From Kiloniellaceae bacterium (GTDB lineage Bacteria > Pseudomonadota > Alphaproteobacteria > Kiloniellales > J153): a stretch of DNA of 64,000 nt. The stretch's first letter is position 1, and the number at the start of each line of letters is the position of its first letter. Position numbers and translations under genes: made by a program. The notes beneath the pieces were generated by a model. That model was not told the DNA's origin. It made no database searches and saw only the letters and a list, made by a program, of their open reading frames with translations. The stretch is taken from NCBI GenBank assembly GCA_021776175.1, contig JAJFGJ010000003.1, positions 144,233-208,232 of the forward strand, read 5' to 3'. Positions 3,950 to 59,632 of the stretch are shown piece after piece.

Positions 3950-4007
3950 GGATCGATTTCTCCGGATACCGGCCGGCCCCGCATACGATTGGGTGGAGGA
4001 AAGCAAG

Positions 4008-6456: not shown

Positions 6457-6461
6457 TCGTC

Positions 6462-7448: not shown

Positions 7449-7524
7449 CCCGCATGGATGGCGCGTTGCGCTGAATGCGGGACTCGGTTATGAGGGATCA
7501 AAGGGGAAAAGAGGAGGTGGGCGA

Positions 7525-8826: not shown

Positions 8827-9026
8827 AATAATCAAGGGATAACAGGCCCTAGTTGATGTGGAGCCAGAGTGTACACAAATATTCCTGGGATGAGTTCGTT
8901 CGCGCGGCAAGGTAAGAAGTGGAATTGACTTTGCCGTTGAAGCTGCAGACGTATACAAGGCCGATCCGGGTAACGGCTTTCCGATACATTCCGGTAGCCG
9001 GCGGTTGAAAAAAAGGATGCGACACC

Positions 9027-24940: not shown

Positions 24941-26494
24941 TTAGCGCGCTACGGCGCGGGGTGAGCAAGAGGCCACCAAGATGACCCGCTCGGCCGGAAA
25001 CGACACGGTCACCGAGGTGCCGACATTGAGCTCGCTCTCGATTTCAAGGGTTCCGCCATGTTGCTCGGCCAGAGCTCGAGTCAGGGGCAGGCCAAGGCCT
25101 GTCCCTTCGTGCTGGCGATTGAGATCGCCGTCGATCTGGCCGAATTTCGACAGAGCCTTCGGAATATCGTCCGGTGCCATTCCGATCCCGGTGTCGGTGA
25201 TCTGGAAGACGAAACCGGTCTCGCGGTGGCACCAAACCTTAAGCGAGACCTCGCTGCCTTCGCCGCTAAATTTGATCGCGTTGGTTAGAAGGTTCATCAG
25301 GATTTGCTTCATCTTGCGCTTGTCGGCACAAAGAATTGGGAGCCTGTCCTGGATATTCAGATTCAGAGTGACGCCATTCTTCATGGCGCGCTGATTGACC
25401 AATCTCGACGACGACTGGATGAGATCTGGAACTTCGATATTCTCTTCGTGTAGCTCGTCCATACCGGATTCGACCTTGGACAGATCCAGGATATCGTTGA
25501 TCAGTTCCAGCAAGTGCTTACCCGAGCCGTGGATATCGCTCACATAGTCCAGGTACTTCTTGTTTTCCATGGGGCCGAATATCTGATTACCGATGACCTC
25601 GGAAAAGCCGATAATCGCATTCAATGGCGTTCGCAGTTCGTGACTCATGGCCGCGAGGAATTCGGACTTGGCCTTGTTCGCCGACTCGGCATCAATTCGC
25701 GCGACGTGAAGCTGCTCGGCCAGGAAAACCAGTTCCGAGCCCTGCTGTTCAAGCGTTTGCTGCACGCCCTCAAGTTCGGCGACACGCTGGCGCATGGCAA
25801 GTTCGCTGATGCGCAGCGTGTTTTCCGTGCGCTTCGATTCGGTGATATCATGCAGTATGACGGTAAGGATTTGTTCCTGGCCCAAATAGAACTTCGATAT
25901 CGAGCCTCTGGCGGGGAACTCGGTTCCATCCTTTCGCAGGCCCAGGATATCCTTACGCACGTTCGCTATGCGGCTGCCCTCCGGCAAGCGCAGAAAATTT
26001 TCCACATGGGCCTTGTGCGTGTTCCGGAACTTCGCTGGGAGGAGTATCTCGACCGGGCGGCCGATCGCCTCGCTTGCCTCGTAGCCGAAAATAACCTCGG
26101 CCCCCTTGTTGAAAAGTTGAATATAGCCATGTCGATCCATCGATATGACCGCGTCGGGGGCGAGTTCAAGAATACCGGACAGCCGACGCTCTGAATTTCG
26201 CGAAGTTTCTTCGGCCAATAGGGATTTGACCACAAAGACAGCCGTGGCCCAGATCGCGAATAGGGCCAAGCCTCGATTGACCAGAGCCATCCATTGCATT
26301 CCCCCGGTCGGGGATAGGGTGAATCCGGTGATCGTCAGCGCGGACACCAGGATCGCGAGCGCATAGACGTCCCTGCGCCGTGCCAGCCATCGACCGGCCA
26401 CGATCACCGCCACATACGGCACGCCACTGGCGACCCCAAGCGGGAGCGAGAGATCGATCAGAAAAATGACGAGCGCCAGGGCGATCGCCAGCAT
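24941..26494 (-). CDS. Membrane PAS sensor histidine kinase (no adjacent response regulator)
   Basis: N-terminal TM bundle, a PAS segment (AVISMDRHGYIQLFNKGAEVIFGY), the H-box [23 protein letters not shown], and the G-boxes DTGIGM and GTGLGL. Confidence 0.9.
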   Translation of the reverse strand: MLAIALALVIFLIDLSLPLGVASGVPYVAVIVAGRWLARRRDVYALAILVSALTITGFTLSPTGGMQWMALVNRGLALFAIWATAVFVVKSLLAEETSRNSERRLSGILELAPDAVISMDRHGYIQLFNKGAEVIFGYEASEAIGRPVEILLPAKFRNTHKAHVENFLRLPEGSRIANVRKDILGLRKDGTEFPARGSISKFYLGQEQILTVILHDITESKRTENTLRISELAMRQRVAELEGVQQTLEQQGSELVFLAEQLHVARIDAESANKAKSEFLAAMSHELRTPLNAIIGFSEVIGNQIFGPMENKKYLDYVSDIHGSGKHLLELINDILDLSKVESGMDELHEENIEVPDLIQSSSRLVNQRAMKNGVTLNLNIQDRLPILCADKRKMKQILMNLLTNAIKFSGEGSEVSLKVWCHRETGFVFQITDTGIGMAPDDIPKALSKFGQIDGDLNRQHEGTGLGLPLTRALAEQHGGTLEIESELNVGTSVTVSFPAERVILVASCSPRAVAR

Positions 26495-28061: not shown

Positions 28062-28940
28062 TTAAATCATGTCAACGTCTCGCTCTGAGCGGGTACGAAG
28101 GTCATCAATATATGCGAAGCTCCAAATATCGAAATTCGGATTGCCGCCTACATCCCTTGTGGTCTTGTGCCGCAGGCTAGCAACCTGCCGCGCATATGGA
28201 GCAAGCTCAATACGATGAGGCCGCGTCATTTGTCGCATTCTAAAACCCCACGATATAGTGTAGGCAATTAAATCTGCAATTTGAACACCAGTCGTGAGAT
28301 CACTATGAACAAATAATGGCTCTGGAATTATTAAACCTGCTCGAAGTTTCCCGATCGCTGTATTTTTGAAATATTTATGCGCTTGTTCGACCAGAATATG
28401 ACTTCTCGATTTTTCAAGTTCATCAAAAACTATGATTCCACGTTCGTCATATTTCCAATCATCCAAAAAATAGAAAAACCGCTCGAATAGATATCCATAG
28501 TCCTTTCTTAGGCCGCCTGACTCTGTTCGGATAGCATCTCGGTCAACGATGCTAGCTAGCGCCCTACAACGAAAGCGCGCACAAATATCGAAAACATCCT
28601 GTACATAGGCGAGTTTCGCCAATGCCAAGGCTTTAATCCGGGAAACATCCGCTTGCGCACCGTTGTCCAGCGCTTCTTTCGCAAGCTGTGGAATCATATC
28701 ATCTTGAATAGGTACATTAAGATCGGCATGCCTGAAGACTTTTGTTTTTAGTAGCTTCTTTCCTTTTAATTCGGCGCTACCAGCACTGTAACGTCGACCG
28801 AAACGTAATAATTCGGCCGCGTGAATTTCTTTGATAATATTCCAAAGATCACGATCTTGTATGGCAACTCCTGCTAGAACCTCATAAGGAGCTTCTTTGC
28901 GGTCGTGTCCACTTTCATCAATGAATAGCAGCCAAGCCAT
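28062..28940 (-). CDS. DUF3800-like protein (function unknown) in a low-GC islet
   Basis: N-terminal MAWLLFIDESGHD matches the hallmark xxFIDESG start of DUF3800 as I recall it. The later QIADLIAY motif is also typical. Composition is markedly AT-richer than the flanks. Confidence 0.72.
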   Translation of the reverse strand: MAWLLFIDESGHDRKEAPYEVLAGVAIQDRDLWNIIKEIHAAELLRFGRRYSAGSAELKGKKLLKTKVFRHADLNVPIQDDMIPQLAKEALDNGAQADVSRIKALALAKLAYVQDVFDICARFRCRALASIVDRDAIRTESGGLRKDYGYLFERFFYFLDDWKYDERGIIVFDELEKSRSHILVEQAHKYFKNTAIGKLRAGLIIPEPLFVHSDLTTGVQIADLIAYTISWGFRMRQMTRPHRIELAPYARQVASLRHKTTRDVGGNPNFDIWSFAYIDDLRTRSERDVDMI

Positions 28941-29091
28941 GCCTCAAGTATAACTTGTAATCTGTCGTTATGGAACTGAGACATTGCCTCGCCGCCGTCG
29001 ATTTCATTAAATATTCCGGCGCATTCGCGCCAGACGCGGGGCGCCCAACCGGGCAGCACTGGCCCTGGACAACGAAAGATTGGGAGTGGCG

Positions 29092-31506
29092 ATGAAAACG
29101 CAGGTTCGGGTAGCCGTCATCGGCGGCGGTGTGGTTGGGTGCAGCGTTCTCTATCATCTAACCAAGCTCGGCTGGAAGGACGTGGTTCTGATCGAGCGGT
29201 CGGAGCTGACCTCGGGATCGACCTGGCACGCGGCCGGCGGGTTTCACACCCTCAACGCCGATCCCAACATCGCCGCCCTGCAAGGCTACACGATCAAGCT
29301 TTACAAGGAATTGGAGGAGATCAGCGGCCAGTCTTGCGGCTTGCACCATGTCGGCGGTCTGACCATCGCGGACACGCCGGAGCGCATGGATTACCTCAAG
29401 GCCGAGCGCGCCAAGCATCGCCACATGGGCCTGGAGACCGAGATCGTCGGCCCGGAGCAGATCCGTGAGCTGAGCCCTATCACCAATACCGAGGGTCTGC
29501 TGGGCGCGCTCTACGATCCGCTCGACGGTCACCTCGACCCTTCGGGAACCACGCACGCCTATGCCAAGGCGGCGCGGGTGCAGGGTGCCGAGATCGTCTT
29601 GCGTAACCGGGTGTTGGAGTTAAACCCGCGCGCCGACGGGACCTGGGACGTGGTGACGGAGCAAGGCACGATCCACGCAGAGCACGTGGTCAATGCCGGT
29701 GGCCTGTGGGCGCGCGAGGTCGGCGCCATGGCCGGGGTGTTCCTGCCGCTTCATGCCATGGAGCATCAATATCTCGTGACCGGCGACATCCCCGCGGTCT
29801 ATGAGCGCGATCGTGAGTTACCCCATGTGATCGACCCGGGCGGGGAAAATTACCTGCGCCAGGAAGGCCGCGGCCTGGTCATCGGGTTCTACGAGCAGGA
29901 TGCGACGCCCTGGGCCGTCGACAGCACGCGCTGGGATTTTGGGCACGAGCTATTGCCAGACAACCTGGATCGTATCGGCGACGCCATGGAGCATTCATTC
30001 CAGCGCTATCCTTGCCTGGCCGAAGCGGGGATAAAGCGGGTCATCAACGGCCCCTTCACCTTCGCGCCCGACGGCAATCCTCTGGTCGGGCCGGTGCCGG
30101 GCCTGCGCAACTACTGGTCCGCCTGCGCGGTCATGGCCGGGTTCTCCCAAGGAGGCGGCGTCGGCCTGACTCTGGCCGAATGGATGGTCGAGGGCGAACC
30201 GTCGCGCGACGTTTTTGCCATGGATGTCGCGCGCTACGGCGACTACGCGACCCGCACCTTCACCCGCGTCAAGGTGACGGAGAATTATCAGCGCCGATTC
30301 GCGATCTCCTATCCCAATGAGGAACTTCCCGCCGGCCGGCCCTTGGAAACCACACCGGCCTACGGCATCTGGAAATCAAAGCGCGCCGTCTTCGGCTCCG
30401 GCTACGGGCTGGAGCACGTCAACTATTTCGCGCCCGAGGGCGAAGCCCTATTCGAGACGCCGTCGTTCCGGCGCTCCAACGCCTTCGATCCGGTCGGCGC
30501 GGAATGCCGCGCGGTGCGTACCAAGGTCGGCATCAATGAGATTCATAATTTCGGCAAATACGATATCTCCGGGCCCGATGCCGAGGCCTGGCTCAATCGC
30601 ATCATGGCCAACCGCATGCCGCGCGAAGGCCGCTTGAACCTTACCCCCATGCTGGCCGAGAGCGGCCGGCTCATTGGCGACTTCACCGTGGCCAAGTTGG
30701 CGGAAGAACGCTTCCAGGTCACCGCTTCCTATGCCTCCCAGGCCTACCACATGCGCTGGTTCGTGGATCACCTGCCCAAGACCGGGGTCACCCTGCGCAA
30801 TGTCTCGCGCGAGCGGGTCGGCTTTCAGATCGCCGGGCCCAATGCCCGCGCGCTCTTGGAACGGGTCACGCGCGAGGACGTTTCAAACGACGCTTTCCCC
30901 TTCCTCTCGGTCCGCGCCATGGAAGTCGGCCTGGTGCCCGCGATCGTGGGCCGGATCTCCTATACCGGGGATTTGGGCTATGAGATCTATGTCGATCGCC
31001 GCCATCAGGTGGCGCTTTACGTGGCGCTGGAGGAAGCCGGGGGCGACTTGGGACTGACCCCCTTTGGCATGAGGGCCATGATGTCGCTGCGCCTGGAAAA
31101 ATCCTTTGGGTCTTGGATGCGTGAATTCAAACCCGATTATACGCCGGCCGAAACCGGCCTGGATCGCTTTATTTCCTTCAAGAAGAACGATTTCATCGGC
31201 CGCGACGCCGCCGTTGCCGCCCGCGACAATCCTCCGGGGCGGCGTCTGTGCGCCTTTGTCGTCGATGCCCAGGACGCCGACGTGGTGGCGGACGAACCGA
31301 TCTGGAAGGACGGCGAGGTCGTGGGTTTCGTGACCTCTGGCGGTTATGCCCATTTCTCGGGAAAGTCGGTCGCGCTCGGCTTCGTGCCGGTGAGCATGAT
31401 CGCCGAGGGTGCCAGGTTCGAGATCGAGATCCTGGGCGATATGCGCCCGGCCACGCTGATCATGCAACCCTTGCTTGATCCCGAAGGCGCCAGGATGCGG
31501 GGATAA
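29092..31506 (+). CDS. Dimethylglycine/sarcosine-dehydrogenase-family flavoprotein (FAD domain + GcvT folate-binding domain)
   Basis: 804 aa. VAVIGGGVVGCSVLYHL, and a C-terminal aminomethyltransferase-like region (ISYTGDLGYEIYV, LRLEKSF). Confidence 0.88.
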   Translation: MKTQVRVAVIGGGVVGCSVLYHLTKLGWKDVVLIERSELTSGSTWHAAGGFHTLNADPNIAALQGYTIKLYKELEEISGQSCGLHHVGGLTIADTPERMDYLKAERAKHRHMGLETEIVGPEQIRELSPITNTEGLLGALYDPLDGHLDPSGTTHAYAKAARVQGAEIVLRNRVLELNPRADGTWDVVTEQGTIHAEHVVNAGGLWAREVGAMAGVFLPLHAMEHQYLVTGDIPAVYERDRELPHVIDPGGENYLRQEGRGLVIGFYEQDATPWAVDSTRWDFGHELLPDNLDRIGDAMEHSFQRYPCLAEAGIKRVINGPFTFAPDGNPLVGPVPGLRNYWSACAVMAGFSQGGGVGLTLAEWMVEGEPSRDVFAMDVARYGDYATRTFTRVKVTENYQRRFAISYPNEELPAGRPLETTPAYGIWKSKRAVFGSGYGLEHVNYFAPEGEALFETPSFRRSNAFDPVGAECRAVRTKVGINEIHNFGKYDISGPDAEAWLNRIMANRMPREGRLNLTPMLAESGRLIGDFTVAKLAEERFQVTASYASQAYHMRWFVDHLPKTGVTLRNVSRERVGFQIAGPNARALLERVTREDVSNDAFPFLSVRAMEVGLVPAIVGRISYTGDLGYEIYVDRRHQVALYVALEEAGGDLGLTPFGMRAMMSLRLEKSFGSWMREFKPDYTPAETGLDRFISFKKNDFIGRDAAVAARDNPPGRRLCAFVVDAQDADVVADEPIWKDGEVVGFVTSGGYAHFSGKSVALGFVPVSMIAEGARFEIEILGDMRPATLIMQPLLDPEGARMRG

Positions 31507-31525: not shown

Positions 31526-33196
31526 TTAGAACTGGGCGCTGATCGCGAAGAAGAAGCGCAGATCCCGGTCGCCGGTGGTGTCGACCCGGCGATCCAAGGG
31601 TTTGGCGACCTCGAAACTCGCCAAGGCGTTTCCGGATACGCCTATACGAAGACCGCCGCCGGCGGAGGCCAAGGTCTGGCTCCGCGAACCGCTCGCTGTA
31701 TTTCGGTTGCGCAAGGCGCCGCCGTCGACAAAACCATAGGCTTCGTAGCTGGTCACGACTTCGCTGTCCCGGTCCTGGCCAAAGCGTAGCTCGGCGGAGC
31801 CGGCCACACCGTTCTCGCCCGAGATCTCGCCGAAATCGTAACCGCGGCCGAATTGCGACCCGCCTATGAGGAATTCTTCCGACGACAGCAAAGGATCCAA
31901 GGACGCTTGCGCCTGGCCCCCCAGCCGCAGGGAGACGGGGCCCCAGATTTTCTGCAACCTGATGATATCCAGCCGGAACTTGGTGAAGCTCCCCTCGCCG
32001 TCCGGGCGCGACAGGTTTATGTCGCCGGCGTTAGAGGCATTCAGGATGTCCAAGCCCTGGCTGACCTCAAGGGCGGCGTAGCTCGTGCCGCCCAGATCGT
32101 CTTGCAGCGAATAGTCCACCTGCACGCGCGCCACGCTAAGCCGGTCGTCGATGGTAGAGATGGCGAAGCGGTCTTCGCTGACACCGCGGACCTCGAAAGA
32201 GACTTGCAGGTTCATAGCCTGGCGGCGTGAGAGGAGTATGGGATGCCGCAGTTCGGTCTTGGCGGTGTAGCTGCGCGATTCGGTTTCTTCCTGGGCCAGA
32301 CCTTTGCCGGCGTCGATGGCGCTGGCGGCCAGGCTGACGCCGAGCACGGCGCCGCCTGTGCCCAGTGGCTGTTCGTAGCCGAGTTGGCCATAGACGAGTT
32401 CCGATGTCTGGTCCGGCACGGTGGCGATGGAGACCTGGACTCTCTCGCCCAGGCCCATGACCGAGTTGAACGCCACGCTGGTCCAGCCCTGTAGCCGGCC
32501 GACCTCCGGGGTGCCCCGGTTGTCCAGGTTCGCGCCGCCGGAAACGGCGCTATGCGTGGTGGGGATCACGAGCGCATACGCGCCATCGTCATCCACTTTC
32601 GCGACCTGGACATCGCCCACCGCCATGCCGGGCAGATCATTTATCACGAGCAGACCGCGTTCGACGGTGCTTAACCGAGCCGGCCGCTCGCGCGTGAAAT
32701 CGCCACGATATTCGCCCAGAAGGCCATCTTGTGCCGAGTCGCCCCGAAACCTGACCTCGGAAAGATATCCTTCGACAACGCGCACCCGAAGAACGCCGCC
32801 TTGAACTTCCTGCGGCGGAACAACGGCATGGGAGAGAAAATATCCGGCGGTGTTGTACTTGGCCGTGATGCGGAGCGCGATCTCCGCCAGATCGGCCGGT
32901 CCGACTTCGCGGGCCAGAAACTCGGCGTAAAGCGAACCAAACTCAGCCGCGTCGAATACGCTCGCGCCTTGAATACTAACCGCGGCCAGCACAAAAGAGA
33001 TTTCGTCCCCGGTCTCAACCAGTGGCGCCGCCGTCGGTTCCTGGAGTTTCGGCTGCGCCTTGGGGAGCGGTGTGGGGCGCAGTTGCTCTATGCGCCGCTC
33101 GATCTGGCCCGGATCCGCTTCCTGGGCAAGAGACTCTTGCGCCAAGAATCCCCATAGGGCGCATAGCGCCATGGCTGACAAAAACGGATTCCGCAC
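31526..33196 (-). CDS. ShlB/FhaC/HecB-type (TpsB) outer-membrane secretion/activation barrel
   Basis: Signal peptide MRNPFLSAMALCALWGFLAQESLAQE. POTRA-like FVLAAVSIQGASVF...ITAKYNTAGYFLSHAVVPPQEVQGGVLRVRVVEGYL. Also ANLDNRGTPEVG, and a beta-barrel C-terminus ending in F. Confidence 0.85.
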   Translation of the reverse strand: MRNPFLSAMALCALWGFLAQESLAQEADPGQIERRIEQLRPTPLPKAQPKLQEPTAAPLVETGDEISFVLAAVSIQGASVFDAAEFGSLYAEFLAREVGPADLAEIALRITAKYNTAGYFLSHAVVPPQEVQGGVLRVRVVEGYLSEVRFRGDSAQDGLLGEYRGDFTRERPARLSTVERGLLVINDLPGMAVGDVQVAKVDDDGAYALVIPTTHSAVSGGANLDNRGTPEVGRLQGWTSVAFNSVMGLGERVQVSIATVPDQTSELVYGQLGYEQPLGTGGAVLGVSLAASAIDAGKGLAQEETESRSYTAKTELRHPILLSRRQAMNLQVSFEVRGVSEDRFAISTIDDRLSVARVQVDYSLQDDLGGTSYAALEVSQGLDILNASNAGDINLSRPDGEGSFTKFRLDIIRLQKIWGPVSLRLGGQAQASLDPLLSSEEFLIGGSQFGRGYDFGEISGENGVAGSAELRFGQDRDSEVVTSYEAYGFVDGGALRNRNTASGSRSQTLASAGGGLRIGVSGNALASFEVAKPLDRRVDTTGDRDLRFFFAISAQF

Positions 33197-33371
33197 GGCA
33201 AACCCTCTCTTAACTCCCTGTCTTATAAATCAAGAATTCAATTAAAAATATACATAAATCTATTACTTAACAATACTTTGGTCTTGATTTTCATCTTCGG
33301 GTTATGTTACTTTCTGTTTACAAGAATTACTCAAGTTTTATCTATTTATCAAAATACTTCGTGAGGAAATC

Positions 33372-34541
33372 ATGACTCAACTCAAACGAATCTTTCACAC
33401 GACGGCTTTGGCGGCTTTCGCCGCCATGTTGGCCGGCCTGTTGTCCGGGGAAGCACGCGCCGGACAAGAAAGTTCGTGGACCTTGGAGAGCCGGTCCGGT
33501 CAAGTGAACTTGGTGAAAACCGGCATGGTCCCGATCTCTCTCTCGACAGGCGACGTTTTCGCGGACGGCGATTGGATCGAAACGGGCCCGGACGGCCGGG
33601 CCATGTTGAAGCGTGGGGAAGAGACGATTGTTGTCGCGCCCAACAGCCGAATCGGGTTGCCTAAAAGTAACGATGGGCCGTATGCCACGCGCATCTTGCA
33701 AACCCTCGGCACGATCCTGCTCACGGTGGAAAAAAAGGCCGCGCAGCATTTCGAGATCGAGACGCCTTACCTTACCGCCGTTGTGAAGGGCACGACCTTT
33801 ACCGTCGGTATCCAGGACGGCCGCGCGGTGGTTCATGTCGTGGAGGGCTTGGTTGAGGTCAATAACCTGTCCAGCGGCCGCAGCAGCCTGATCCGTCCCG
33901 GACAGACTGGATCCGTCATTCGTGGCGGCAGCGGCAATATCGAGATCGATGTTGGCGGCGCAAACGGCACGCCAGCCAGTGCGGCGGCCACGCAGGCACC
34001 GGGCGCGAGTCAGGCGACGGCCCCAGTCGCGAGCCAGGCCTCGCCGGTCGCCGTCGCGGCGGTATCGAATGGCAAGTCGCGCAAGGTTAGAATCGCGCGG
34101 GCTCTTGGCCCCACGACCCTCGACCTGAGCAAGTCGACCAAGGGCTTGGTGCGTGCCGCCCAAGGGGGGCAAGGCAAGGCTCTGGGTAAGGGGCATTTGG
34201 CCGGCAAGCAAGCCACCGCCTCGGATGTTCGAAGCAACGGTCTAGCTTTAGGCAAGACCGCCGCCGCCTCGGGTGCCCGGGGCAGCGCCGGGAACAACGG
34301 CCTCGCTTTAGGCAAGACCGCCGCCGCCTCTAGAGATCTAAGCAGCGCCGGGAACAACGGCCTCGCTTTAGGCAAGACCGCCGCCGCCTCTAGGGCTCTG
34401 AGAAGCGCCGGGAACAACGGCCTAGCGCATGGCAACAGCGCAATCGCCAAACTGCAGGCCTCCGTGGATCATGGCCACGGTGCGGGCGACAACCCGCGCG
34501 CCAATCCGGTTAAAGGCCATGGCAATGGCAATAGTAACTAA
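33372..34541 (+). CDS. Secreted FecR-domain protein with C-terminal Ala/Gly-rich 20-aa tandem repeats
   Basis: Signal peptide ...LLSGEARAGQ. FecR-type core GDWIETGPDGRAMLKRGEETIVVAPNSRIGL...FEIETPYLTAVVKGTTFTV...VHVVEGLVEV. Repeats follow the pattern NNGLALGKTAAASxxLxSAG. Confidence 0.8.
   Translation: MTQLKRIFHTTALAAFAAMLAGLLSGEARAGQESSWTLESRSGQVNLVKTGMVPISLSTGDVFADGDWIETGPDGRAMLKRGEETIVVAPNSRIGLPKSNDGPYATRILQTLGTILLTVEKKAAQHFEIETPYLTAVVKGTTFTVGIQDGRAVVHVVEGLVEVNNLSSGRSSLIRPGQTGSVIRGGSGNIEIDVGGANGTPASAAATQAPGASQATAPVASQASPVAVAAVSNGKSRKVRIARALGPTTLDLSKSTKGLVRAAQGGQGKALGKGHLAGKQATASDVRSNGLALGKTAAASGARGSAGNNGLALGKTAAASRDLSSAGNNGLALGKTAAASRALRSAGNNGLAHGNSAIAKLQASVDHGHGAGDNPRANPVKGHGNGNSN
34235..34435 (+). 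repeat. 60-bp tandem repeat, about 3.3 copies, in frame within the FecR-domain gene
   Basis: Units at 34235-34294, 34295-34354 and 34355-34414, plus a partial fourth. Units 2 and 3 differ at only about 5 positions. Confidence 0.9.
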
Positions 34542-34956
34542 CGCCAGTAGCGCCGGATAGACGCGCGCCGACACTAACGCCAAGTCTCAATACCGGCGGT
34601 TCAATTCGCTCGTCGTGAAATGAGCCGATCGGTTTGAGGCTTGGTATTTGGGGTTTGGCGAGGGCCGCAGCCGCAGCCGGTATTAACACAATCATAACTA
34701 TCGTTAAGACGTTATTGCCACCATGCCGGGAATGAGGGGGAAATCGATTTCCGGTGCCAAACGATCTAGCAACTTTCCCGGTGTTTAATTGAGCTGTCAA
34801 CGGCACGCCCGCGGGCAAGTCCGGTTCGCGAGGGGTCAGTCCGGGCGGGCTCGGTGGCGGCCGAGACTGATCTCGGGAACGTCCCAGGAATTGATCTGGC
34901 ATGAATTTTCACGTGGCTTTCCTAGTGAATCACCGAATTGGCGGATACAGAGTTAG

Positions 34957-37230
34957 ATGAGAATTATGTCCAGAGTGTCGGCCCGATGGATTGGCGCCTT
35001 GGCCATCCTCACCATGATCGCGGTGCTGGATGTCGCCGGGATTCTGGGGCCGATCGACCGGGCCTTGATGGACACCCGTTTCCGGGTCCTGGACCGGCCG
35101 GCCAGCGGCGATATCGTCATCGTCCAGATCGATCCCTACAGCTTGCGAGAGCTCGACGTATGGCCTTGGCCGCGGCGGTACCACGCCGACTTGATCGATA
35201 AGCTGGTCGCGGCGGACGTTCGTGAGATCGCTATAGACATCGATCTCAGCGCGCGCAGCACCGAGGCTGACGACCTGGCCTTGGCGGCCGCTCTGACGCG
35301 GGCACACAACCGGATCGTCTTGCCGGCGTTTCGCCAGACGGCGGCGCCCGAGGCCAGGGGCAGCCGTATATTCGACACTTTGCCGCGGCCCGAATTCAGT
35401 GAACATGCCCAGGTCGGCAGCATCAACGTTTCACCCGCTCCGGATGGTCTGATTCGGCGCATGTCGGGGGTGCATAGTGTGGGTCCTCGGCCCTTACCTG
35501 CGCTCTTCGCGCTGCTGGCCGGGCCAGCGGCCATCAACGATACCCCCTTCTACATAGATTACGGTATCGATCCGAATACGATCCCGCGAATTTCCTATGT
35601 CGATGTCCTGCGCGGAAATTTCGCCGCCGGGCAACTGGCGGGCAAGACGGTGATTGTCGGCACCACGGCGGCTGAGCTGGGCGATACGCTGCCGGTGCCC
35701 GTATACCGCTCCATGGCCGGGCCGGCGATCCAGGCGTTGGCTTTCGAGTCCGTCCGCCAAGGGCGCGCCATTCAAACCTTCGGCTCCGCTCTCTCGATAC
35801 CTGTCAGCGCCCTTGTGGTGGTTCTCTTTACGATACTGTTCGCGAGGCGGCGTTGGCGCTTGGCGGTATTTTTCTGCTTTACCGCCATGTTCGGAATCGA
35901 AGCGCTCGCCATTGCCGTCCAGGCGATCGCCCCGATTGCTTTGACCACGGCGCCATGGCTGATCGCGGCGCCCTTGTCACTTCTGTTCGCGCTATCGGGA
36001 CAGATCGAAACCCAGGCCCGCCAGATTCTCGAGCAACGAGAGACGATCGCCACGCGCCGCGCCTTGATGGACAGCATGGTCGAGAACAGTTTCGACGGCA
36101 TCGTCATCGCCGACCATGGCGGCAGGATACAGGTGATGAACAAGGCCGCCGAAGCGATCCTGCGATGCTCCGCGGGCGAGGCGATCGGTTTGTCGATCGA
36201 TAAAATCCTGCCTGACGCCGAGGAACTGGCAGCGAAATTCCTGCCCTCTGGGGATGCCGAAACCGGCCAAGACGGCGACGCTAGGATTCCGCGCGAATGC
36301 ACCATGGAACGGCGCGGCGGGGACCGCGTGGCTATTGAATTAACTGTTGGCGCGGTCGATCTGGCGCCGGTTAAGCTTGGCCGGCGGGAGGTCGTGCCCG
36401 AGCGGGTTTACCGCACCCTGACGTTCCGCGACATCTCCGAACGTAAAGCCACCCAGGCCGCCCAGCAACTCGCGGTTAAAGAGGCATTGGCGGCCAACCG
36501 TGCCAAGACAGAGTTTCTGGCCAATATGAGCCACGAACTGCGCACGCCCCTAAACGCCATCATTGGGTTCTCGGATACGATCCGCTGCGAGGTTTTCGGT
36601 CCGGTCAACCCACCGCGTTACGGCCAATACATAGACGATATCCACGACAGCGGTACCCACCTATTGCAAATCATTAGCGATATTCTCGATGTTTCGCGCA
36701 TCGAGCTCGGCCAATTCGAAATTGAGGAGCAAGAGTTCGACCCGGCCGAGGCCTTGGCGAGCTGTGCCAAGATCGCGGCCGGATGGCCTGGCATCGGCGA
36801 GCGGCGCGATTACTCGGTCGAGCTTCCGGCCGGTTTGCCCTTCGTTAGGGGCGATGAAAGAGTCATCAAGCAGGTTGTGATAAATCTGCTGTCGAACGCC
36901 TTCAAATACAGCCGCGACGGCGACCGGATCGTGCTTTCCGCCAAGCTGGAAGAGCAAGGAACCCTGGCGATCGTCGTCAAGGACACGGGAATTGGGATCG
37001 CGCCACAAAACATGCCCGACCTGACGACGGCTTTCTACCAAGTGGAAGGGGCCTTCGCGCGCGAAGGCGAGGGCGTCGGCCTCGGCCTGTTCCTGTGCTC
37101 CAGCTATGTCAAGCTGCACGGTGGCGAATTCTCGATCGACAGCGAGTTGGATGCCGGTACCACGGTGACGGTACGCTTGCCGGCGGAACGGCTTAGCCTG
37201 TCTTCATCCGGTGCCGCGGTGAGCGCCTGA
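34957..37230 (+). CDS. CHASE2-domain sensor histidine kinase (CHASE2-3TM-PAS-HisKA-HATPase; no receiver domain)
   Basis: N-terminal TM, then a ~270-aa periplasmic region with CHASE2-like motifs (IVIVQIDPYSL...WPWPRRYHADLIDKL, VIVGTTAAELGD). Three TM segments follow, then a PAS segment, the H-box [23 protein letters not shown], and DTGIGI/GVGLGL. Confidence 0.85.
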   Translation: MRIMSRVSARWIGALAILTMIAVLDVAGILGPIDRALMDTRFRVLDRPASGDIVIVQIDPYSLRELDVWPWPRRYHADLIDKLVAADVREIAIDIDLSARSTEADDLALAAALTRAHNRIVLPAFRQTAAPEARGSRIFDTLPRPEFSEHAQVGSINVSPAPDGLIRRMSGVHSVGPRPLPALFALLAGPAAINDTPFYIDYGIDPNTIPRISYVDVLRGNFAAGQLAGKTVIVGTTAAELGDTLPVPVYRSMAGPAIQALAFESVRQGRAIQTFGSALSIPVSALVVVLFTILFARRRWRLAVFFCFTAMFGIEALAIAVQAIAPIALTTAPWLIAAPLSLLFALSGQIETQARQILEQRETIATRRALMDSMVENSFDGIVIADHGGRIQVMNKAAEAILRCSAGEAIGLSIDKILPDAEELAAKFLPSGDAETGQDGDARIPRECTMERRGGDRVAIELTVGAVDLAPVKLGRREVVPERVYRTLTFRDISERKATQAAQQLAVKEALAANRAKTEFLANMSHELRTPLNAIIGFSDTIRCEVFGPVNPPRYGQYIDDIHDSGTHLLQIISDILDVSRIELGQFEIEEQEFDPAEALASCAKIAAGWPGIGERRDYSVELPAGLPFVRGDERVIKQVVINLLSNAFKYSRDGDRIVLSAKLEEQGTLAIVVKDTGIGIAPQNMPDLTTAFYQVEGAFAREGEGVGLGLFLCSSYVKLHGGEFSIDSELDAGTTVTVRLPAERLSLSSSGAAVSA

Positions 37231-37327: not shown

Positions 37328-38566
37328 ATGCCCCTGGGATTACTAAAATACGGCTTTAGCCGCCGCTATCCGGCGCGCCAGGACATTCCACCGCGAAAGG
37401 ACCTGAAGGCGTCCTATGACGTGGTGATTGTCGGCGGCGGCGGGCACGGCTTGGCGACCGCTTACTACCTGGCCAAGACCTGGGGTATCCGCAACGTCGC
37501 GGTGCTGGAAAAGGGCTACCTGGGCGGCGGCAATACGGCCCGCAACACCGCTGTCATTCGTTCCAACTACATCACCCCGGAATCGGTCCGTTTTTATAAG
37601 GAAGCGGTCGAGCTTTATACCGGCCTGGCGCACGAGCTGGACTACAACATGATGTTCAGCCGGCGCGGGCAACTCACCCTGGCCCATACCGATGCGACGG
37701 TGCGCACCTTCCGCCTGCGCGCCGAGGTTGGCAAGCATTGCGGCACCGGTATCGAAATGATCGACCGCGCGCAGGTCCGCGAGCTCGTGCCGAGCTTGAA
37801 CATGACCCACGAGCGCTATCCCATTCAAGCCGGCTTGTGGCACCCCGATGCCGGCACCGGGCGGCACGATTCGGTCGCCTGGGGTTACGCCGCGCGGGCC
37901 GCCGGGATGGGCGTCGAGCTGCATCAGCGTACCGAGGTGACGGGCTTCCAGCGCGACGGCGAGACTATTACAGCGGTCGAAACCAACCGGGGCACGGTCA
38001 AGTGCGGCCAGGTGGTCCAGGCGGTCGCCGGCATGTCGTCGGTGGTCGCCAAGATGGCGGGCCTGCGCCTGCCGATTAGGACCTTTCCCTTGCAGGCCAT
38101 GGTGACGCAACCGCTCAAACCCTTTCTCGATCCCATGGTTTCTTCGACCGCGCTGCATTGCTATGTGTCGCAAACCGCGCGCGGTGAAATCGTTATCGGC
38201 GGCGGGTCGGACCCTTATGAGCTTTACTCGACGCGCTCGACCCTGGATCTCAAGGAAAGCCTGATCGGGCACGCGGTGGAGATGTTTCCCTTCCTCTCCG
38301 AGGTCCGGCTCATGCGCCAGTGGGCGGGCATGACCGACATGACCCCCGATTACAGCCCGGTCATGGGCGCCAGCCCGCTCAAGAACTACTGGCTGGATGC
38401 CGGCTGGGGCACCTGGGGGTTCAAGGCCACGCCCGTGTCCGGCAAATACATGGCCGAAACCGTGGCCAAGCAGAAAGCCCCCGCCATGATTCAGCCCTTC
38501 AGGCTGGACCGTTTCGCGACCTTCGATCTCGCCAACGAGATGGGCGCGACGGCGGCGAGCCATTAG
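37328..38566 (+). CDS. soxB: Heterotetrameric sarcosine oxidase, beta subunit
   Basis: YDVVIVGGGGHGLATAYYLA; 412 aa; followed by the delta, alpha and gamma subunits in the canonical soxBDAG order. Confidence 0.9.
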   Translation: MPLGLLKYGFSRRYPARQDIPPRKDLKASYDVVIVGGGGHGLATAYYLAKTWGIRNVAVLEKGYLGGGNTARNTAVIRSNYITPESVRFYKEAVELYTGLAHELDYNMMFSRRGQLTLAHTDATVRTFRLRAEVGKHCGTGIEMIDRAQVRELVPSLNMTHERYPIQAGLWHPDAGTGRHDSVAWGYAARAAGMGVELHQRTEVTGFQRDGETITAVETNRGTVKCGQVVQAVAGMSSVVAKMAGLRLPIRTFPLQAMVTQPLKPFLDPMVSSTALHCYVSQTARGEIVIGGGSDPYELYSTRSTLDLKESLIGHAVEMFPFLSEVRLMRQWAGMTDMTPDYSPVMGASPLKNYWLDAGWGTWGFKATPVSGKYMAETVAKQKAPAMIQPFRLDRFATFDLANEMGATAASH

Positions 38567-45050: not shown

Positions 45051-47078
45051 CTAGGCCAGGCTAGACACGGAATCCGCGAAGCCGCCTAAGCGCTCGCTCG
45101 GGAGCTGGACGGTCACGGCGGTTCCCACGCCGGTCTCGCTTTCTATATCCAGGGTGCCGCCATGCATTTCCACCAGCGCCTTGGTCAGAGGCAGCCCAAG
45201 TCCCGTGCCTTCGTAGGCGCGGCTAAGAGTGCTGTCCACCTGAGCGAAAGGCGCGATAACTTTCGATAGATTTTCCTTGGCGATTCCTATTCCGTTATCG
45301 CTTACCCGCATCGTCAGGCCGTGTTCGGGAGTCGCGCTCACTGTCAGTTCGATGGTGCCGCCGGGCTGGGTAAACTTGACCGCGTTGGAAAGGAGGTTGA
45401 GCAGGATCTGCTTCAATTTAAGCCCATCGGCATAAAGCGTCGGTAGGTTGTGCGGCACCTTGGAAACTACCTTCAGGTTGCCCGAATCCGCCCGCTCCTT
45501 GATTATGGTCATGCTGGAGAGAACCACCTCGTCCAAATCCACGAATGACTCATAGAGATCGAGCTTGCCGGCCTCGATCTTCGACAAATCGAGTATGTCG
45601 TTTATCAGTTGCAGCAGGTGATGGCCGGAATCGTTTATGTCTTTCGCATAGTCGATGTATTTTTCGTCTCCGACTGGGCCGAAGGCTTGGTTTTGGGTAA
45701 GCTCCGAGAATCCAATGATGGCGTTGAGGGGCGTGCGAAGCTCGTGGCTCATGTTGGCCAGGAATTCGGACTTCGACCGGTTCGACAACTCGGCCTCCTC
45801 TTTAGCTTCGCGCAGTCTCCTTTTGCTGAGTTGAATCTCTACCACCTTTTTCTTGAGGGCATCGCGCGCATGGCGAAGTTCGTCCTCGCGCTGTTCGATG
45901 GTCGAGATGAAACCCTTCAGGGCCTCGGCCATGCGCGTGATTTCATCGTTTCCGCCGGAGGGGATTTTATGGGTCCCTCCCGAGGCGTGAATGGCCATGC
46001 TCCGTTGCAGCGCAACCAACCTGCCACCGATGTCGCGGCCGATATAAAGAGCCAAGCCAACCGCGCCCAGAACACAAAACGCGGCAATGGCGGCTAATAT
46101 CCATCCGTAGAGCTTCAGGTTCTCCCGCGATTCTTGCGTGGCCGTTTCGATTTCGTCCTGTGCCGCTTGGATCAACACGTTCGCGGCAAATACCAGGGAT
46201 TTGCCGTTCTGGTTGTACGCATAGACCATGCGTTCCGCCGCCGCGGCCGCTTTCAGTTCCCGCTCACGTAGATTGAACATGTTTTCGTCGCCGGATCCAA
46301 ACCGCTTTAAATCCTGAAATGGCTTGGATATACGCGCGGCCGCTTTCCCGGGCAGTTCGGAAATTTCGGCTTCGGCTCTTTTCGCGATGACCTGAAACTC
46401 GTTTCTTAGATTTTTCAGGCCAAAAGGCGTAGGGGCGTTGGCTGCCGCTAGCAGGTTGGTTTGGATGGCTTTGCCTAAAACCCGCGCCATGGGCGCGATT
46501 TGAGCGATATGCGCGTCATGTAATTTGTGCCCGGGTGTGAGGCGGTGCTCAATTATACCGGGTGCGGCTTGACCGCTTGCGAACTCGGCGCCCGCTTCAT
46601 TGGTCGCGTCTTGAAAGGCGTGGAATGAGACAGTAAGTGCATGAATTGCCTCTTGCTTCTCGATCTTGGCGGCAATTCGCGCTTGAACCATTTTGTCGAG
46701 CGACTTGAAGGTAGCGAAGAGCTGATCTCTCTTGCGCACGATGCCTGCCACCGCCTCGACTTCGCTCCCCTCGAGGCGCGCGATCAACTCACCAAGCCAA
46801 TTCATCTGATCCGCGATCCTATTTGCTGCGGTTAGACGCTGGGTCTGGGCTCTCGAGGTCAGAAGGGTGGGCGCCGTTGCAGCGATGGCTTCGGTTTGCT
46901 GGGCGATTTGGTAGGCCGTGGCCGCCACGGGCAGGTGAGACTGAGTGATATGGTCCAGCGCGGCCCAGCTTTGGACGAATGCGAAGATACCCAAGGCGCT
47001 AGCCAACACCGTGGCCGCGGCGGCGCCGCCGAAGCTGAGTATGAGGCGGTTCTTAACGCTGAGCGATACTAGGACCAT
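45051..47078 (-). CDS. Periplasmic-sensor/HAMP histidine kinase (no adjacent response regulator)
   Basis: N-terminal TM, a ~300-aa periplasmic helical region, a second TM, a HAMP-like segment, a coiled coil, the H-box [23 protein letters not shown], and DNGIGI/GTGLGL. Confidence 0.88.
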
Positions 47079-51608: not shown

Positions 51609-52358
51609 TCATAGAAAGGCTCTGGCGGCGATATAAAGCCCCAATACGAACAGGAAGCAAAAGAACACCTTGCGGAACGTGGCTTCGGGCAGACGGCGGC
51701 GAATACGTTGCCCCGCGGCCATGCCAAGAGTGGCCGGAACGACCGCCGCGGCCGACAAGGCGCCGAGTTCGCGGGGCAGCAAGCCGTGATTCGACAAGGA
51801 AATCCCCAGTGCCAGGGTTAGGGCCACGAATACCACGCCCATGGCCTGAACCAGGGTATCGCGTGCCAACCCCAAGGCTTGAAGATACAAGACTCCGGGG
51901 ACCACAAACGATCCGGTCAGGCCGGTAATCGCCCCCCCGGTAAGCCCGATGGCGGGGGACAGCCAGGATTCGTGCCGGCCGGGCGGGCGTACCTGCGGCC
52001 TGGCCAGGCTGTAGCCCGTGTAGACGCATAGCAGCACGCCGAGCAGGCCAGCCACGAGCGCGGCGTCGGCCCGGGCCAAGAGGGCGCTTCCGAACCAGGT
52101 TCCCATGCACGCGGCGGCTATCAGGCTCCATAACCGCCGCACGATGGCCTTCAACTCGCTTCCGCTCAGGGCCTGCCACAAATTAGCGGCAAGCGATGGC
52201 ACTATCATTAAAGCGATCGCCTGCTTCACATCCATGGCCGCGGTCAGAAGGGCAAGTGAGACTGTCGGCAAACCCAAGCCGATGACACCCTTTATCAGGC
52301 CAGCGGCCAAGAATGCCGCCCCGGTCAGGGCCACAACTTCAAGAGGTATGTTTGACAT
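51609..52358 (-). CDS. TauE/SafE-family sulfite/anion exporter
   Basis: Polytopic membrane protein with GLIKGVIGLGLP and GGAITGLTG motifs. The start at MSNIPLE (52358) is preferred. Confidence 0.88.
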   Translation of the reverse strand: MSNIPLEVVALTGAAFLAAGLIKGVIGLGLPTVSLALLTAAMDVKQAIALMIVPSLAANLWQALSGSELKAIVRRLWSLIAAACMGTWFGSALLARADAALVAGLLGVLLCVYTGYSLARPQVRPPGRHESWLSPAIGLTGGAITGLTGSFVVPGVLYLQALGLARDTLVQAMGVVFVALTLALGISLSNHGLLPRELGALSAAAVVPATLGMAAGQRIRRRLPEATFRKVFFCFLFVLGLYIAARAFL

Positions 52359-52597
52359 GGGTCTCCGGGCGGCGGGGGTCTCTTGGATACAGGCGTCACC
52401 CAGGCATAACACAGAATGAGCATTGCCGCCGAGCCATGGTACCTGGGCCGGCGCATGGCGGGGGTCATATTCGGGATTTTGCCAAGGGCCGCATTAACGA
52501 TCTATTTCCCGTATTTCGCCAAGATGAGCGGCGCGCCGCCGGGCGCTGGGAATATGAGTATTGGGCCGAAGCCAAGGTCGCCGGTATCGAGGACGCC

Positions 52598-58723: not shown

Positions 58724-59533
58724 TTATCCCGCTTGGCGGCGCCGCAACAAGTTATCGAGCCCGCCGCCAAGCAGGGCGTCGAGCAGGCGCAGGGAATCCA
58801 GGGCGCCGTGGGCGTCGCCTTTTTCAAAATCCACTTCCGTGACCGCCATGGTGTTGGTCACATGGGCAAAGCACAGAACCGGCAGCGCTTTCGCCGCCGC
58901 GAAGGCGTAGAGGGCGGCGGACTCCATTTCAATCGCGGCCAGGCCCAGGGCGCGGCCTTCGTCCAATACGGCCTGGGTTTCGCGGTAAGGGGCGTCGGTG
59001 GTCCAGGTGCGGCCCTTATGGACGCTTAGACCGCTTGCCGCCAAGGCGGCCCAGGCGGCGTCGATCAATTGTGGATCGGCGGCGGCGAAATCTGCGGGCG
59101 GCAGGTAGTGATAGCTGGTCCCCTCGTCGCGCAAGGCCTGTTCGGCCAGCACGTAGTAGGGCGTCTCGCCCAGGGGCTTGAGCTGCCCCGAGGAGGTGAT
59201 GCTGATCAACAAGCGGCACCCGCTGGCGAACATCTGCTCGGCCAGAAGCACGGCATAGGGCGCGCCGACCGCGTTGCCGACAATTCCGACCCGCTGTCCC
59301 ATGCGCTCGAATTCGAACATCTCGGAGTGGTAACAGGCCCAGGCCGCCACGGGTTTCGCCTGGCCGGAGTCACGCAGGTAGCGGAGGATATCGCCGTCGG
59401 GGTCGAGCAGATTGATCTCCGGCACCTCGGCGGTGGCGAGGCCCTTCTGGCGCCGTGCCTCGCGCAACAGGTTCTCGGCTTGAAATACCGAGGGCGCGCC
59501 GTGATGCTTGGTGCGCAGTATGGGCGGCGGCAT
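58724..59533 (-). CDS. Nucleoside phosphorylase-family (PNP/UDP type 1) protein
   Basis: The C-terminal 269 aa of the 539-aa track ORF: GIVGNAVGAPYAVLLAEQM...LISITSSG...AIEMESAALYAFA. The upstream part of that ORF is antisense to the response regulator gene. Confidence 0.8.
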   Translation of the reverse strand: MPPPILRTKHHGAPSVFQAENLLREARRQKGLATAEVPEINLLDPDGDILRYLRDSGQAKPVAAWACYHSEMFEFERMGQRVGIVGNAVGAPYAVLLAEQMFASGCRLLISITSSGQLKPLGETPYYVLAEQALRDEGTSYHYLPPADFAAADPQLIDAAWAALAASGLSVHKGRTWTTDAPYRETQAVLDEGRALGLAAIEMESAALYAFAAAKALPVLCFAHVTNTMAVTEVDFEKGDAHGALDSLRLLDALLGGGLDNLLRRRQAG

Positions 59534-59567
59534 AGTTGGTTCCCCCGAGGCTATCGGCCCCTGACGT

Positions 59568-59589
59568 GTGATGGTTTCGTGATAGTCTG
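59568..59589 (+). promoter_or_regulatory. Tandem 11-bp direct repeat upstream of the response regulator gene (candidate OmpR-type box)
   Basis: gtgatggtttc followed by gtgatagtctg (8/11 identical, one helical turn apart), about 45 nt upstream of the ATG at 59633. Confidence 0.3.
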
Positions 59590-59632
59590 CGGCTATATCA
59601 TGCACGGGCCGGGGATTGGAGTCGTGAAGGGC

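Follow-up and report, generated by a model that had tools for sequence, protein, structure and literature searches.

A three-gene locus in a stretch of 64,000 nucleotides of DNA from a Kiloniellaceae bacterium (the window, by which the whole 64-kb stretch is meant) encodes a TpsB-type outer-membrane barrel, a secreted FecR-domain protein, and a CHASE2 sensor histidine kinase of the inner membrane. The reading preferred here, with a probability of about 55%, is that these genes specify one envelope-spanning sensory module in which the FecR-domain protein bridges the barrel and CHASE2. They are taken as a single module because the input side (barrel, FecR-domain protein, and CHASE2) is conserved while the outputs are freely swapped, and the linkage of the trio is far beyond chance.

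Neighborhoods of related CHASE2 genes were scanned in one genome per species. At least 514 CHASE2 relatives were found, and the best 80 were analyzed with locally built hidden Markov models (HMMs). The locus scans relied on narrow alignments of CHASE2 and of the barrel (A2 and A6), more diverse ones (A1 and A4) being too divergent. This census, like the barrel-anchored census described below, covers relatives of this CHASE2 or barrel clade rather than all CHASE2 proteins, and its statistics are uncorrected for phylogeny. A FecR gene lies within 6 kb of the CHASE2 gene in 62 of the 63 loci that have enough upstream sequence to be assessed, and it is directly upstream on the same strand in 56 of the 63. 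A ShlB/TpsB-type barrel gene is found within 6 kb at 33 of 56 assessable loci, in all but one of these 33 (32) divergent and upstream as in the window. An earlier interpretation of this DNA (the sequence-only reading) had proposed such a census and had described a three-component device; the census among related loci bears out the linkage and the trio does recur, but the near-obligate core is the FecR-CHASE2 pair (62/63), with the barrel present at ~59% of loci (33/56).

The 80 CHASE2 relatives include 48 histidine kinases and 31 GGDEF/EAL proteins. No REC (receiver) domain is encoded within 1.5 kb of the CHASE2 gene at any of the 80 loci, and none of them contains a match to the two-partner secretion (TPS) domain; the TPS HMM was built from a single sequence and did detect Comamonas and metagenomic TpsA proteins in control loci. 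The carriers are mostly alphaproteobacterial (Kiloniellales, Rhodospirillales, Hyphomicrobiales, Parvibaculaceae, Bradyrhizobium, Sneathiella, and Tepidicaulis), and a few of the metagenome-assembled genomes (MAGs) in the census are labeled as other phyla. The closest CHASE2 relative is in a Kiloniellaceae MAG (82% identity, barrel 81%; locus L015, the L numbers being the labels of the loci compared). Cultured carriers of a related locus include Tepidicaulis marinus, Bradyrhizobium sp. Ghvi, Bosea sp. Tri-49, Desertibaculum subflavum, and Sneathiella litorea. At a few Parvibaculaceae-type kinase loci (L044, L073, and L081) a REC gene lies just past the barrel gene, that of L073 having its own kinase; these may be cognate regulators or coincidence.

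Comparisons anchored on the barrel give the same arrangement. A locus with a barrel 57% identical to that of the window (L007) keeps the whole order of dimethylglycine dehydrogenase-type (DMGDH-type) gene, barrel, FecR gene, CHASE2 kinase gene, and soxBDA. With barrel identities of 47, 43, 41, and 37% the flanking genes are unrelated, but the order of barrel gene, facing FecR gene, and CHASE2 receptor gene is kept, the receptors having kinase or GGDEF-EAL outputs. Bosea sp. Tri-49 (barrel 33%) has barrel, FecR, and CHASE2-PAS-GGDEF-EAL genes, and in Azospirillum ramasamyi (barrel 37%) a CHASE2 cyclase gene adjoins the barrel gene. A 241-residue protein encoded upstream of the Azospirillum cyclase was considered as a divergent FecR protein and rejected, with no Pfam match and an hhalign probability of 0.2%. 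Because the arrangement persists from 57 to 33% barrel identity in unrelated contexts and with histidine kinase, GGDEF-EAL, or cyclase outputs, the input side is the conserved unit. Conservation of the trio, which the sequence-only reading had wanted checked, reaches far outside close relatives and into unrelated genomic surroundings. More distant barrels (32-26%) are found with filamentous-hemagglutinin or other giant cargo, or with other neighbors. Chance adjacency of three unrelated genes has a virtually negligible probability and is refuted by the censuses, as the arrangement recurs with unrelated flanks in dozens of species-level genomes and in metagenomic contigs.

In the reciprocal, barrel-anchored census of 80 metagenomic contigs, loci with a FecR-linked barrel never have a TPS-domain protein or giant open reading frame (ORF) nearby, and the ~40 loci with TpsA-like cargo never have a FecR gene. 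The absence of a classical TpsA beside orthologous barrels is thus seen in both censuses. A neighbor-joining tree of 120 barrels places 52 of the 58 signaling-linked barrels, and none of the 40 TpsA-linked ones, in one clade. Four loci of classical TPS type with a CHASE2 cyclase gene 5 kb away (L174-L177) fall outside this clade and were set aside as coincidental.

The same comparisons bear on the suggestion that the trio is devoted to controlling the dimethylglycine/sarcosine (betaine, dimethylsulfoniopropionate [DMSP]) catabolic genes on either side of it, sensing their substrates or related osmolytes. The sequence-only reading placed the trio between the DMGDH gene and soxBDAG; the position is correct, and it is kept in L015 and L007 (CHASE2 82% and barrel 81% in the former, barrel 57% in the latter). 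There is no other regulator inside the catabolic cluster, and L007 has a DMSP-lyase/cupin gene (3461-4090, +) between the CHASE2 kinase gene and soxB, consistent with a marine island of methylated-osmolyte catabolism in which the module is embedded. Such a role is nevertheless very unlikely. At barrel identities of 47% or less the trio stands in wholly unrelated neighborhoods, its outputs include enzymes of cyclic di-GMP (c-di-GMP) and cyclic AMP (cAMP) metabolism, the kinase has no linked regulator, and small-molecule substrates would need no outer-membrane protein transporter. The synteny is lineage-specific rather than a general functional link to the flanking genes, and it most simply reflects inheritance at the family level.

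Composition of the three proteins

The three ORFs are present as the sequence-only reading described them, and Pfam upholds its domain calls (ShlB/POTRA_2 for the barrel, FecR, and CHASE2-PAS-HisKA-HATPase_c), as it does such details as the LDNRG motif and terminal phenylalanine of the barrel, the tandem-repeat end of the FecR-domain protein, and the hydrophobic segments around CHASE2. Coordinates are given in Table 1.

The barrel matches ShlB (2.3e-26), POTRA_2 (1e-15), and Omp85 (1.2e-10) in Pfam. It has a signal peptide, LDNRG at residue 224, the C-terminal sequence AISAQF, an H1-like helix at residues 29-39, two POTRA domains, and a 16-strand barrel. The lid-lock motifs of the TpsB/Omp85 superfamily, (V/I)RG(Y/F) and (F/G)xDxG, are represented by GRGY at 450-453 (L6) and FVDGG at 489-493 (β13), and R451, D491, F489, and Y487 are invariant among 52 barrel homologs. 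A profile of these homologs matched CdiB (6WIM, 1.5e-36) and FhaC (7e-16) over their full length in a search of PDB sequences. The AlphaFold2 (AF2) model (predicted local distance difference test [pLDDT] score 87, predicted TM-score [pTM] 0.81) contains the N-terminal helix, two β-α-α-β-β POTRA units, and the barrel, and Foldseek aligns it to CdiB (TM-score 0.75/0.78) and also to FhaC. Judged by sequence and model, the protein is a canonical TpsB that looks like a working translocator rather than a degenerate relic. Since it keeps the hallmarks of a translocator, some polypeptide client is expected, and the FecR-domain protein is the only conserved secreted neighbor.

That a TpsA is missing from the window, as claimed before, is correct: no ORF exceeds 1018 aa, and kinases, metabolic enzymes, the DMGDH-type protein, and SoxA account for the largest ORFs of the 64 kb. 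The locus consequently lacks the large exoprotein ORF of a TPS system, and the fold of the FecR-domain protein is not a β-helix. A separate observation concerns a more distant TpsB-like barrel (26.5% identity) on a Ralstonia solanacearum megaplasmid (L098; 3774-4835, -; 5309-6688, +; 6986-8659, +), which is flanked by Gly/Ser/Thr-rich lipoproteins annotated as "collagen-like" and not by a TpsA, with a GGDEF/EAL gene 1.6 kb downstream. TpsB barrels may thus be paired more widely with disordered Gly-rich proteins.

The FecR-domain protein has a single Pfam domain, FecR (2.1e-12, residues 69-162). Its only hydrophobic segment is N-terminal and signal-like (residues 7-25). The signal peptide (~1-30) is followed in the AF2 model by a confidently predicted all-β FecR domain (~35-193) and a disordered C-terminal half (196-389, pLDDT below 50) rich in Ala, Gly, Ser, and Asn. 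The best Foldseek matches of the folded domain are bona fide FecR-type structures, BDI_1681 (4M0N, 4.5e-7) and the C-terminal cell-surface signaling domain (CCSSD) of PupR (6OVK_R, 3e-6), and not the TPS β-helix. In the FecR domain, Gly140-Thr141 aligns with G181-T182 of Escherichia coli FecR within an invariant K-G-T-x-F motif. G181-T182 is the reported site at which FecR cleaves itself, and FoxR self-cleaves at the corresponding site (PMC8144685, PMC11637429). The Gly-Thr motif is present in 75 of 84 FecR ORFs of the census.

The FecR-domain partners at independent loci have a common architecture consisting of a signal peptide, FecR domain, low-complexity linker, short conserved motif, and a tail with N-G-x-A-[LF]-G motifs and (GNGN)n stretches of up to ~150 residues. 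In the window protein the short motif is ALGPTTLDLSKSTKGLVRAA, which recurs in the partners of L007, L008, L009, L012, L002, and L010 and is a candidate POTRA- or partner-binding segment. The tandem repeat of the window protein, with units of the form NGLALGKTAAAS....SAGN, can be read as four NGLA[LH]G[KN].A.A motifs (residues 289, 309, 329, and 349), and the protein ends in GHGNGNSN. Features of the tail vary with the barrel. Gly/Asn-rich tails occur at 23 of 33 barrel loci versus 6 of 22 barrel-less loci (Fisher p=0.003, no phylogenetic correction), and the short motif, written as a regular expression, at 10 of 33 versus 1 of 22. A C-terminal hydrophobic helix is found in the FecR protein of 5 of 22 barrel-less loci versus 1 of 33 with a barrel. 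It is chiefly this covariation that speaks, indirectly, for the FecR-domain protein as the client of the barrel.

Two loci depart from the common pattern. L009 encodes two FecR proteins (5220-5954, -, and 6318-7421, -); the one on the barrel side has a (GNGN)n tail, and the other, of 244 residues, has a C-terminal transmembrane helix and ends 3 bp upstream of a CHASE2-GGDEF-EAL gene, suggesting that two FecR proteins might act there as a relay. In L010/L011 (a marine Rhodospirillaceae MAG) the FecR gene (6843-7831, -) is split into ORFs of 149 and 180 codons, by a pseudogene mutation or an assembly error. A natural division of the gene at the Gly-Thr site was considered and rejected, because an alternate frame reads through (…KTPFLAAAVKGTTFTV) and the break is a frameshift in a homopolymer run.

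These properties also permit a non-canonical form of TPS, in which the barrel exports the whole FecR-domain protein to the surface or medium as an adhesin or binding protein and the CHASE2 kinase regulates or monitors secretion instead of having the FecR domain as its periplasmic ligand. The intact lid-lock motifs of a canonical TpsB speak for it, as does the position of the FecR domain directly after the signal peptide, the place of the TPS domain in TpsA proteins. The nearest NCBIfam matches of the FecR-domain protein, far below cut-offs, are the Leptospira surface proteins Lsa33 and LipL45, and its repetitive disordered tail resembles surface-protein stalks. Export of this kind is unlikely, all the same. 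FecR-CHASE2 pairing is kept at the ~41% of loci that lack a barrel and in other lineages (PMC5192318); because the pairing persists without a barrel, the FecR-domain protein has a role independent of secretion. Where the barrel is missing, the FecR protein is often anchored through a C-terminal helix, the FecR domain of the Sinorhizobium meliloti protein NsrA is placed on the periplasmic side (PMC7529298), and the window protein has a FecR-type fold rather than a β-helix and no TPS domain.

The kinase matches CHASE2 at 1.2e-37 (130 bits versus a cut-off of 26.3), PAS, HisKA (1.7e-19), and HATPase_c (5.3e-26) in Pfam; NCBIfam returns only kinase-core matches under the family cut-offs. Hydropathy places a first transmembrane helix at ~6-34 and a three-helix transmembrane cluster at 271-346, bounding a periplasmic CHASE2 domain (19-279), a layout typical of CHASE2 transmembrane receptors. 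The cytoplasmic part comprises PAS (370-495), HisKA (516-584, with the H-box HELRTP at His526), and HATPase_c (632-744), with no receiver domain. A sequence search found no CHASE2 relative of solved structure. The earlier statement that the kinase lacks both a receiver domain and a nearby response regulator is correct. Five receiver-domain queries against all six frames found a single REC domain in the 64 kb, in an OmpR-type regulator (59069-60340) that is paired with its own dCache kinase (60190-61821) and lies >21 kb from the CHASE2 kinase gene. As the sole REC domain of the window is tied to the dCache kinase, the CHASE2 kinase is an orphan.

Proposed mechanism and its alternatives

From gene linkage, domain identities, conservation with exchangeable outputs, the distinct barrel clade, and the covariation of tail and barrel, all of them observed, we infer a chain of physical contacts and the following order of events. 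The near-obligate core would be the secreted FecR-domain protein and the inner-membrane CHASE2 receptor, here an orphan histidine kinase, with the folded FecR domain most likely serving as the periplasmic protein partner or ligand of CHASE2. The barrel would represent a dedicated TpsA-less TpsB subfamily whose likely client is the FecR-domain protein. Its POTRA domains and pore may hold the ~195-residue disordered tail or thread it to the cell surface, and the FecR-domain protein would thereby link the outer membrane with CHASE2. Changes at the cell surface or in the outer membrane, whatever the nature of the signal, would alter the FecR-CHASE2 contact; self-cleavage at Gly140-Thr141 and regulated proteolysis are possibly involved, as in FecR-type (Fec/Fox) cell-surface signaling. 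The altered contact would switch autophosphorylation of His526, from which a regulator encoded at another site would receive the phosphoryl group, giving a presumed outside-in direction of signaling.

Several points weigh against this module. The contacts among the FecR-domain protein, the barrel, and CHASE2 are deduced, and the earlier proposal that the FecR-domain protein is the substrate of the barrel or a connector to CHASE2 draws its support indirectly, from the tail-barrel correlation and the dedicated barrel clade. The barrel is absent from ~41% of related loci and so is not essential to FecR-CHASE2 function, although barrel-less genomes could encode one elsewhere. The tail-barrel correlation is uncorrected for phylogeny, and the tail of the window protein is Ala-rich and modestly rich in Gly and Asn (~24% of the tail). 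The FecR-domain protein has no TPS domain, and to our knowledge known TpsB proteins recognize nothing else. The tree is a rough neighbor-joining tree with 6 signaling-linked barrels outside the main clade, and the Azospirillum locus with barrel and CHASE2 cyclase genes encodes a small protein unlike FecR. The FecR, CHASE2, and barrel HMMs were built locally from this clade, and the sensitivity of the searches for divergent TPS, REC, and FecR domains is limited.

Some of these points would favor a sensor made up of the FecR-domain protein and CHASE2 alone, with the barrel a separate element that shares the divergent promoter and is either an orphan TpsB for cargo encoded elsewhere or an outer-membrane pore for the signal molecule. 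The barrel is missing from 23 of 56 related loci, the FecR-CHASE2 operons of Burkholderia and Pseudomonas have none (PMC5192318), and the Azospirillum barrel gene adjoins a CHASE2 cyclase gene with no FecR protein. It is difficult to reconcile such independence with a clade that holds 52 of 58 signaling-linked but none of 40 TpsA-linked barrels, with the stereotyped layout in which 32 of 33 barrel genes diverge from the FecR gene, or with tail features that co-vary with barrel presence; a pore, moreover, needs neither POTRA domains nor lid-lock motifs. A separate barrel is accordingly improbable, and the three-protein module remains the preferred reading.

A bolder proposal is that a whole TpsB subfamily has been repurposed from the export of large TpsA toxins and adhesins to signaling, engaging or exporting the disordered tail of a self-cleaving FecR-domain protein that acts as a trans-envelope tether and whose state CHASE2 reads, the same input driving kinase, c-di-GMP, and cAMP outputs in hundreds of species; this is put forward tentatively, as a claim that may well prove wrong. 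CHASE2 serves widely as the sensor of kinases, cyclases, and c-di-GMP enzymes, and the factors that it recognizes are not known according to the Pfam description quoted in PMC5192318. The presence of a FecR gene at 62 of 63 loci, together with the genetics of NsrA and the cyclase CyaK in S. meliloti, suggests that CHASE2 reads a partner protein rather than a small ligand. The question of CHASE2 input becomes directly testable in this way, and the module supplies tractable cultured organisms for its study. A TpsA-less TpsB clade would also add signal transduction to the functions known for type V secretion components.

The locus and its surroundings

Table 1. Positions of the module genes, their internal features, and the adjoining regions in the window.
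Feature	Position	Strand	Remarks
DMGDH-type gene	29080..31506		One flank; DAO+FAO_M+GCV_T (Pfam)
TpsB barrel gene	31526..33196	-	556 aa; ShlB/FhaC/CdiB family, type Vb
Barrel/FecR divergent intergenic region	33197..33371		Promoter region; AT-rich; conserved blocks by alignment
FecR-domain protein gene	33372..34541	+	389 aa, secreted; Pfam FecR
Gly140-Thr141	33789..33794	+	Candidate self-cleavage site (VVKGTTFTV); invariant in FecR alignment
Conserved short motif, residues 243-262	34098..34157	+	In disordered half; ALGPTTLDLSKSTKGLVRAA; recurs in partner proteins
Tandem repeat	34235..34423	+	60-nt period, 3.2 copies (Tandem Repeats Finder); 20-aa NGLALGKTAAAS....SAGN units
Gap between FecR and kinase genes	34542..34956		415 bp, non-coding
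CHASE2 sensor histidine kinase gene	34957..37230	+	757 aa
soxB	37328..38566		Other flank; then soxD, soxA, soxG

The divergent intergenic region has a GC content of ~0.56. Aligned with the corresponding regions of L015, L006, and L007, it has a mean column identity of 71% with an invariant TTAAC, and its conserved blocks are kept among relatives whose barrels are 57-81% identical to that of the window. No σ70 consensus was matched in this region. A regulatory RNA, terminator, or promoter was sought in the divergent region and in the 415-bp gap, with no Rfam family and nothing convincing found. An Rfam match to the Rhizobiales small RNA Atu_At1 inside the kinase gene (35833-35925, +) is most likely due to chance, with a score of 30.5 bits (E=0.09) where the gathering score is 60.

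The closest genome, L015 (Kiloniellaceae MAG OFTM28), has tandem FecR genes (7272-8465 and 8752-9903) before the kinase gene. Both paralogs match the single FecR gene of the window, and the second occupies the position of the 415-bp gap. Neither has a clearly Gly/Asn-rich tail; over the last 80 residues Gly plus Asn amount to 24% in one and 28% in the other.

A DUF3800 gene (28062-28940, -; Pfam 1.3e-18) separates the DMGDH-type gene from a HAD-hydrolase gene. The patch has a GC content of 0.45 versus ~0.63, and in the closest relatives (L015 and L006) the HAD-hydrolase and DMGDH-type genes adjoin, so the DUF3800 gene is apparently a strain-specific insertion. The region is rich in unpaired sensors, with others at 24941-26494 (-), 45051-47078 (-), and 52313-54610 (+); these are two orphan histidine kinases (one of PAS type and one with a TorS-like sensor) and a 765-residue protein with a sub-threshold protein-kinase match.

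Relation to known signaling and secretion systems

The sequence-only reading was aware of no characterized example of such a device, but the NsrA-CyaK system of S. meliloti is a characterized relative. Genetically, perception of a plant (protein) signal by the CHASE2 cyclases CyaK and CyaD1/D2 depends on the outer-membrane protein NsrA (PMC7529298, PMC13001267), and Smc02177, encoded beside cyaD1, also has a FecR domain (PMC5498481). The architecture of NsrA was re-derived from the sequence of the S. meliloti locus. The 1197-residue protein, encoded directly upstream of cyaK, consists of a FecR domain (residues 66-160), a TPR region, and a C-terminal barrel of ~600 residues that has no Pfam match. 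Both systems have a FecR-domain gene immediately upstream of a CHASE2 receptor gene, with both domains above Pfam thresholds, an R/K-G-T-x-[FW] motif in the FecR domain that includes the Gly-Thr pair in NsrA as well, and an outer-membrane β-barrel on the input side. They differ in that NsrA joins FecR, TPR, and barrel in one polypeptide, whereas the barrel of the window is a separate TpsB gene product with POTRA domains; where NsrA has TPR, the window protein carries a disordered repeat tail. The receptor of the window acts through a histidine kinase and CyaK through a cyclase, and their CHASE2 domains are only 31% identical. NsrA was considered as a fusion of the FecR-domain protein and the barrel of the window. 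The barrel part of this idea was rejected, with no BLASTP match, an hhalign probability of 0.06%, and no ShlB or POTRA match in NsrA by Pfam, and HMMs from the TPR region and barrel of NsrA had no match at the 80 CHASE2-anchored loci. By sequence, what the two systems have in common is only the FecR domain and its pairing with CHASE2.

Operons with FecR and CHASE2 genes are known from Burkholderia and Campylobacterota (PMC5192318, PMC9239204). The "BiofilmReg" operon of Burkholderia and its relatives encodes a LysM/FecR protein and a CHASE2 histidine kinase, with a CreB-type regulator upstream and a DUF4136 protein downstream, and Pseudomonas aeruginosa has pairs of the PA4035 type (PMC5192318). 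As in BiofilmReg, the window has a secreted FecR-domain gene directly upstream of a gene for a CHASE2-PAS-HisKA-HATPase kinase. In contrast to BiofilmReg, which has a response regulator and LysM and no outer-membrane barrel, the window locus has a TpsB barrel and neither a LysM match nor a linked regulator, and the genes flanking its FecR-CHASE2 pair are those for the barrel and SoxB.

The FecA-FecR-FecI, Fox, and Pup systems follow the same logic, from an outer-membrane protein through a periplasmic FecR domain to an inner-membrane output, and the FecR fold (PupR 6OVK and BDI_1681) and conserved Gly-Thr site are likewise held in common. Unlike their FecR-type proteins, that of the window lacks a cytoplasmic anti-sigma domain, a transmembrane anchor, and an STN-like C-terminal subdomain. 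The locus has no gene for an extracytoplasmic function (ECF) sigma factor or TonB-dependent transducer; its partner is instead a TpsB, and its output a CHASE2 kinase. With classical TPS systems (FhaC/FHA, ShlB/ShlA, and CdiB/CdiA) the window shares a full-length barrel homolog with H1, two POTRA domains, 16 strands, and the lid-lock. It differs from them in having no TpsA or TPS-domain protein, either in the window or at any FecR-linked locus, and in that the FecR-linked barrels form their own clade.

RcsF, a lipoprotein assembled by BamA, is threaded through OmpA/C/F and signals to IgaA in the Rcs envelope stress response. As proposed for the window protein, a disordered stretch of this sensor runs through a barrel of the outer membrane, and its folded part in the periplasm touches a signaling protein of the inner membrane. 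The protein families are unrelated to those of the window, and the threading of the window protein is a hypothesis by analogy.

In Caulobacter NA1000, the genes CCNA_00635-00639, all down-regulated by the small RNA AbnZ, encode a CHASE2 receptor, a hypothetical protein, a TPR protein, and two "heme:hemopexin-binding proteins" (PMC11724286). The last label is also attached to barrel homologs in Sphingobium plasmid records. Judged from annotation, this co-regulated cluster is probably a relative of the module in an organism amenable to genetics, and the hemopexin label possibly denotes a TpsB-type protein (HxuB).

Set against these systems, FecR-CHASE2 coupling and signaling from the outer membrane to CHASE2 are already known. 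The trio is undescribed among the top-ranked matches of the literature searched on CHASE2 alone or with FecR, POTRA, or TpsB-type barrels. What it adds is a TpsA-less clade of canonical TpsB barrels, encoded by genes of their own and dedicated to such loci, together with a tailed FecR partner.

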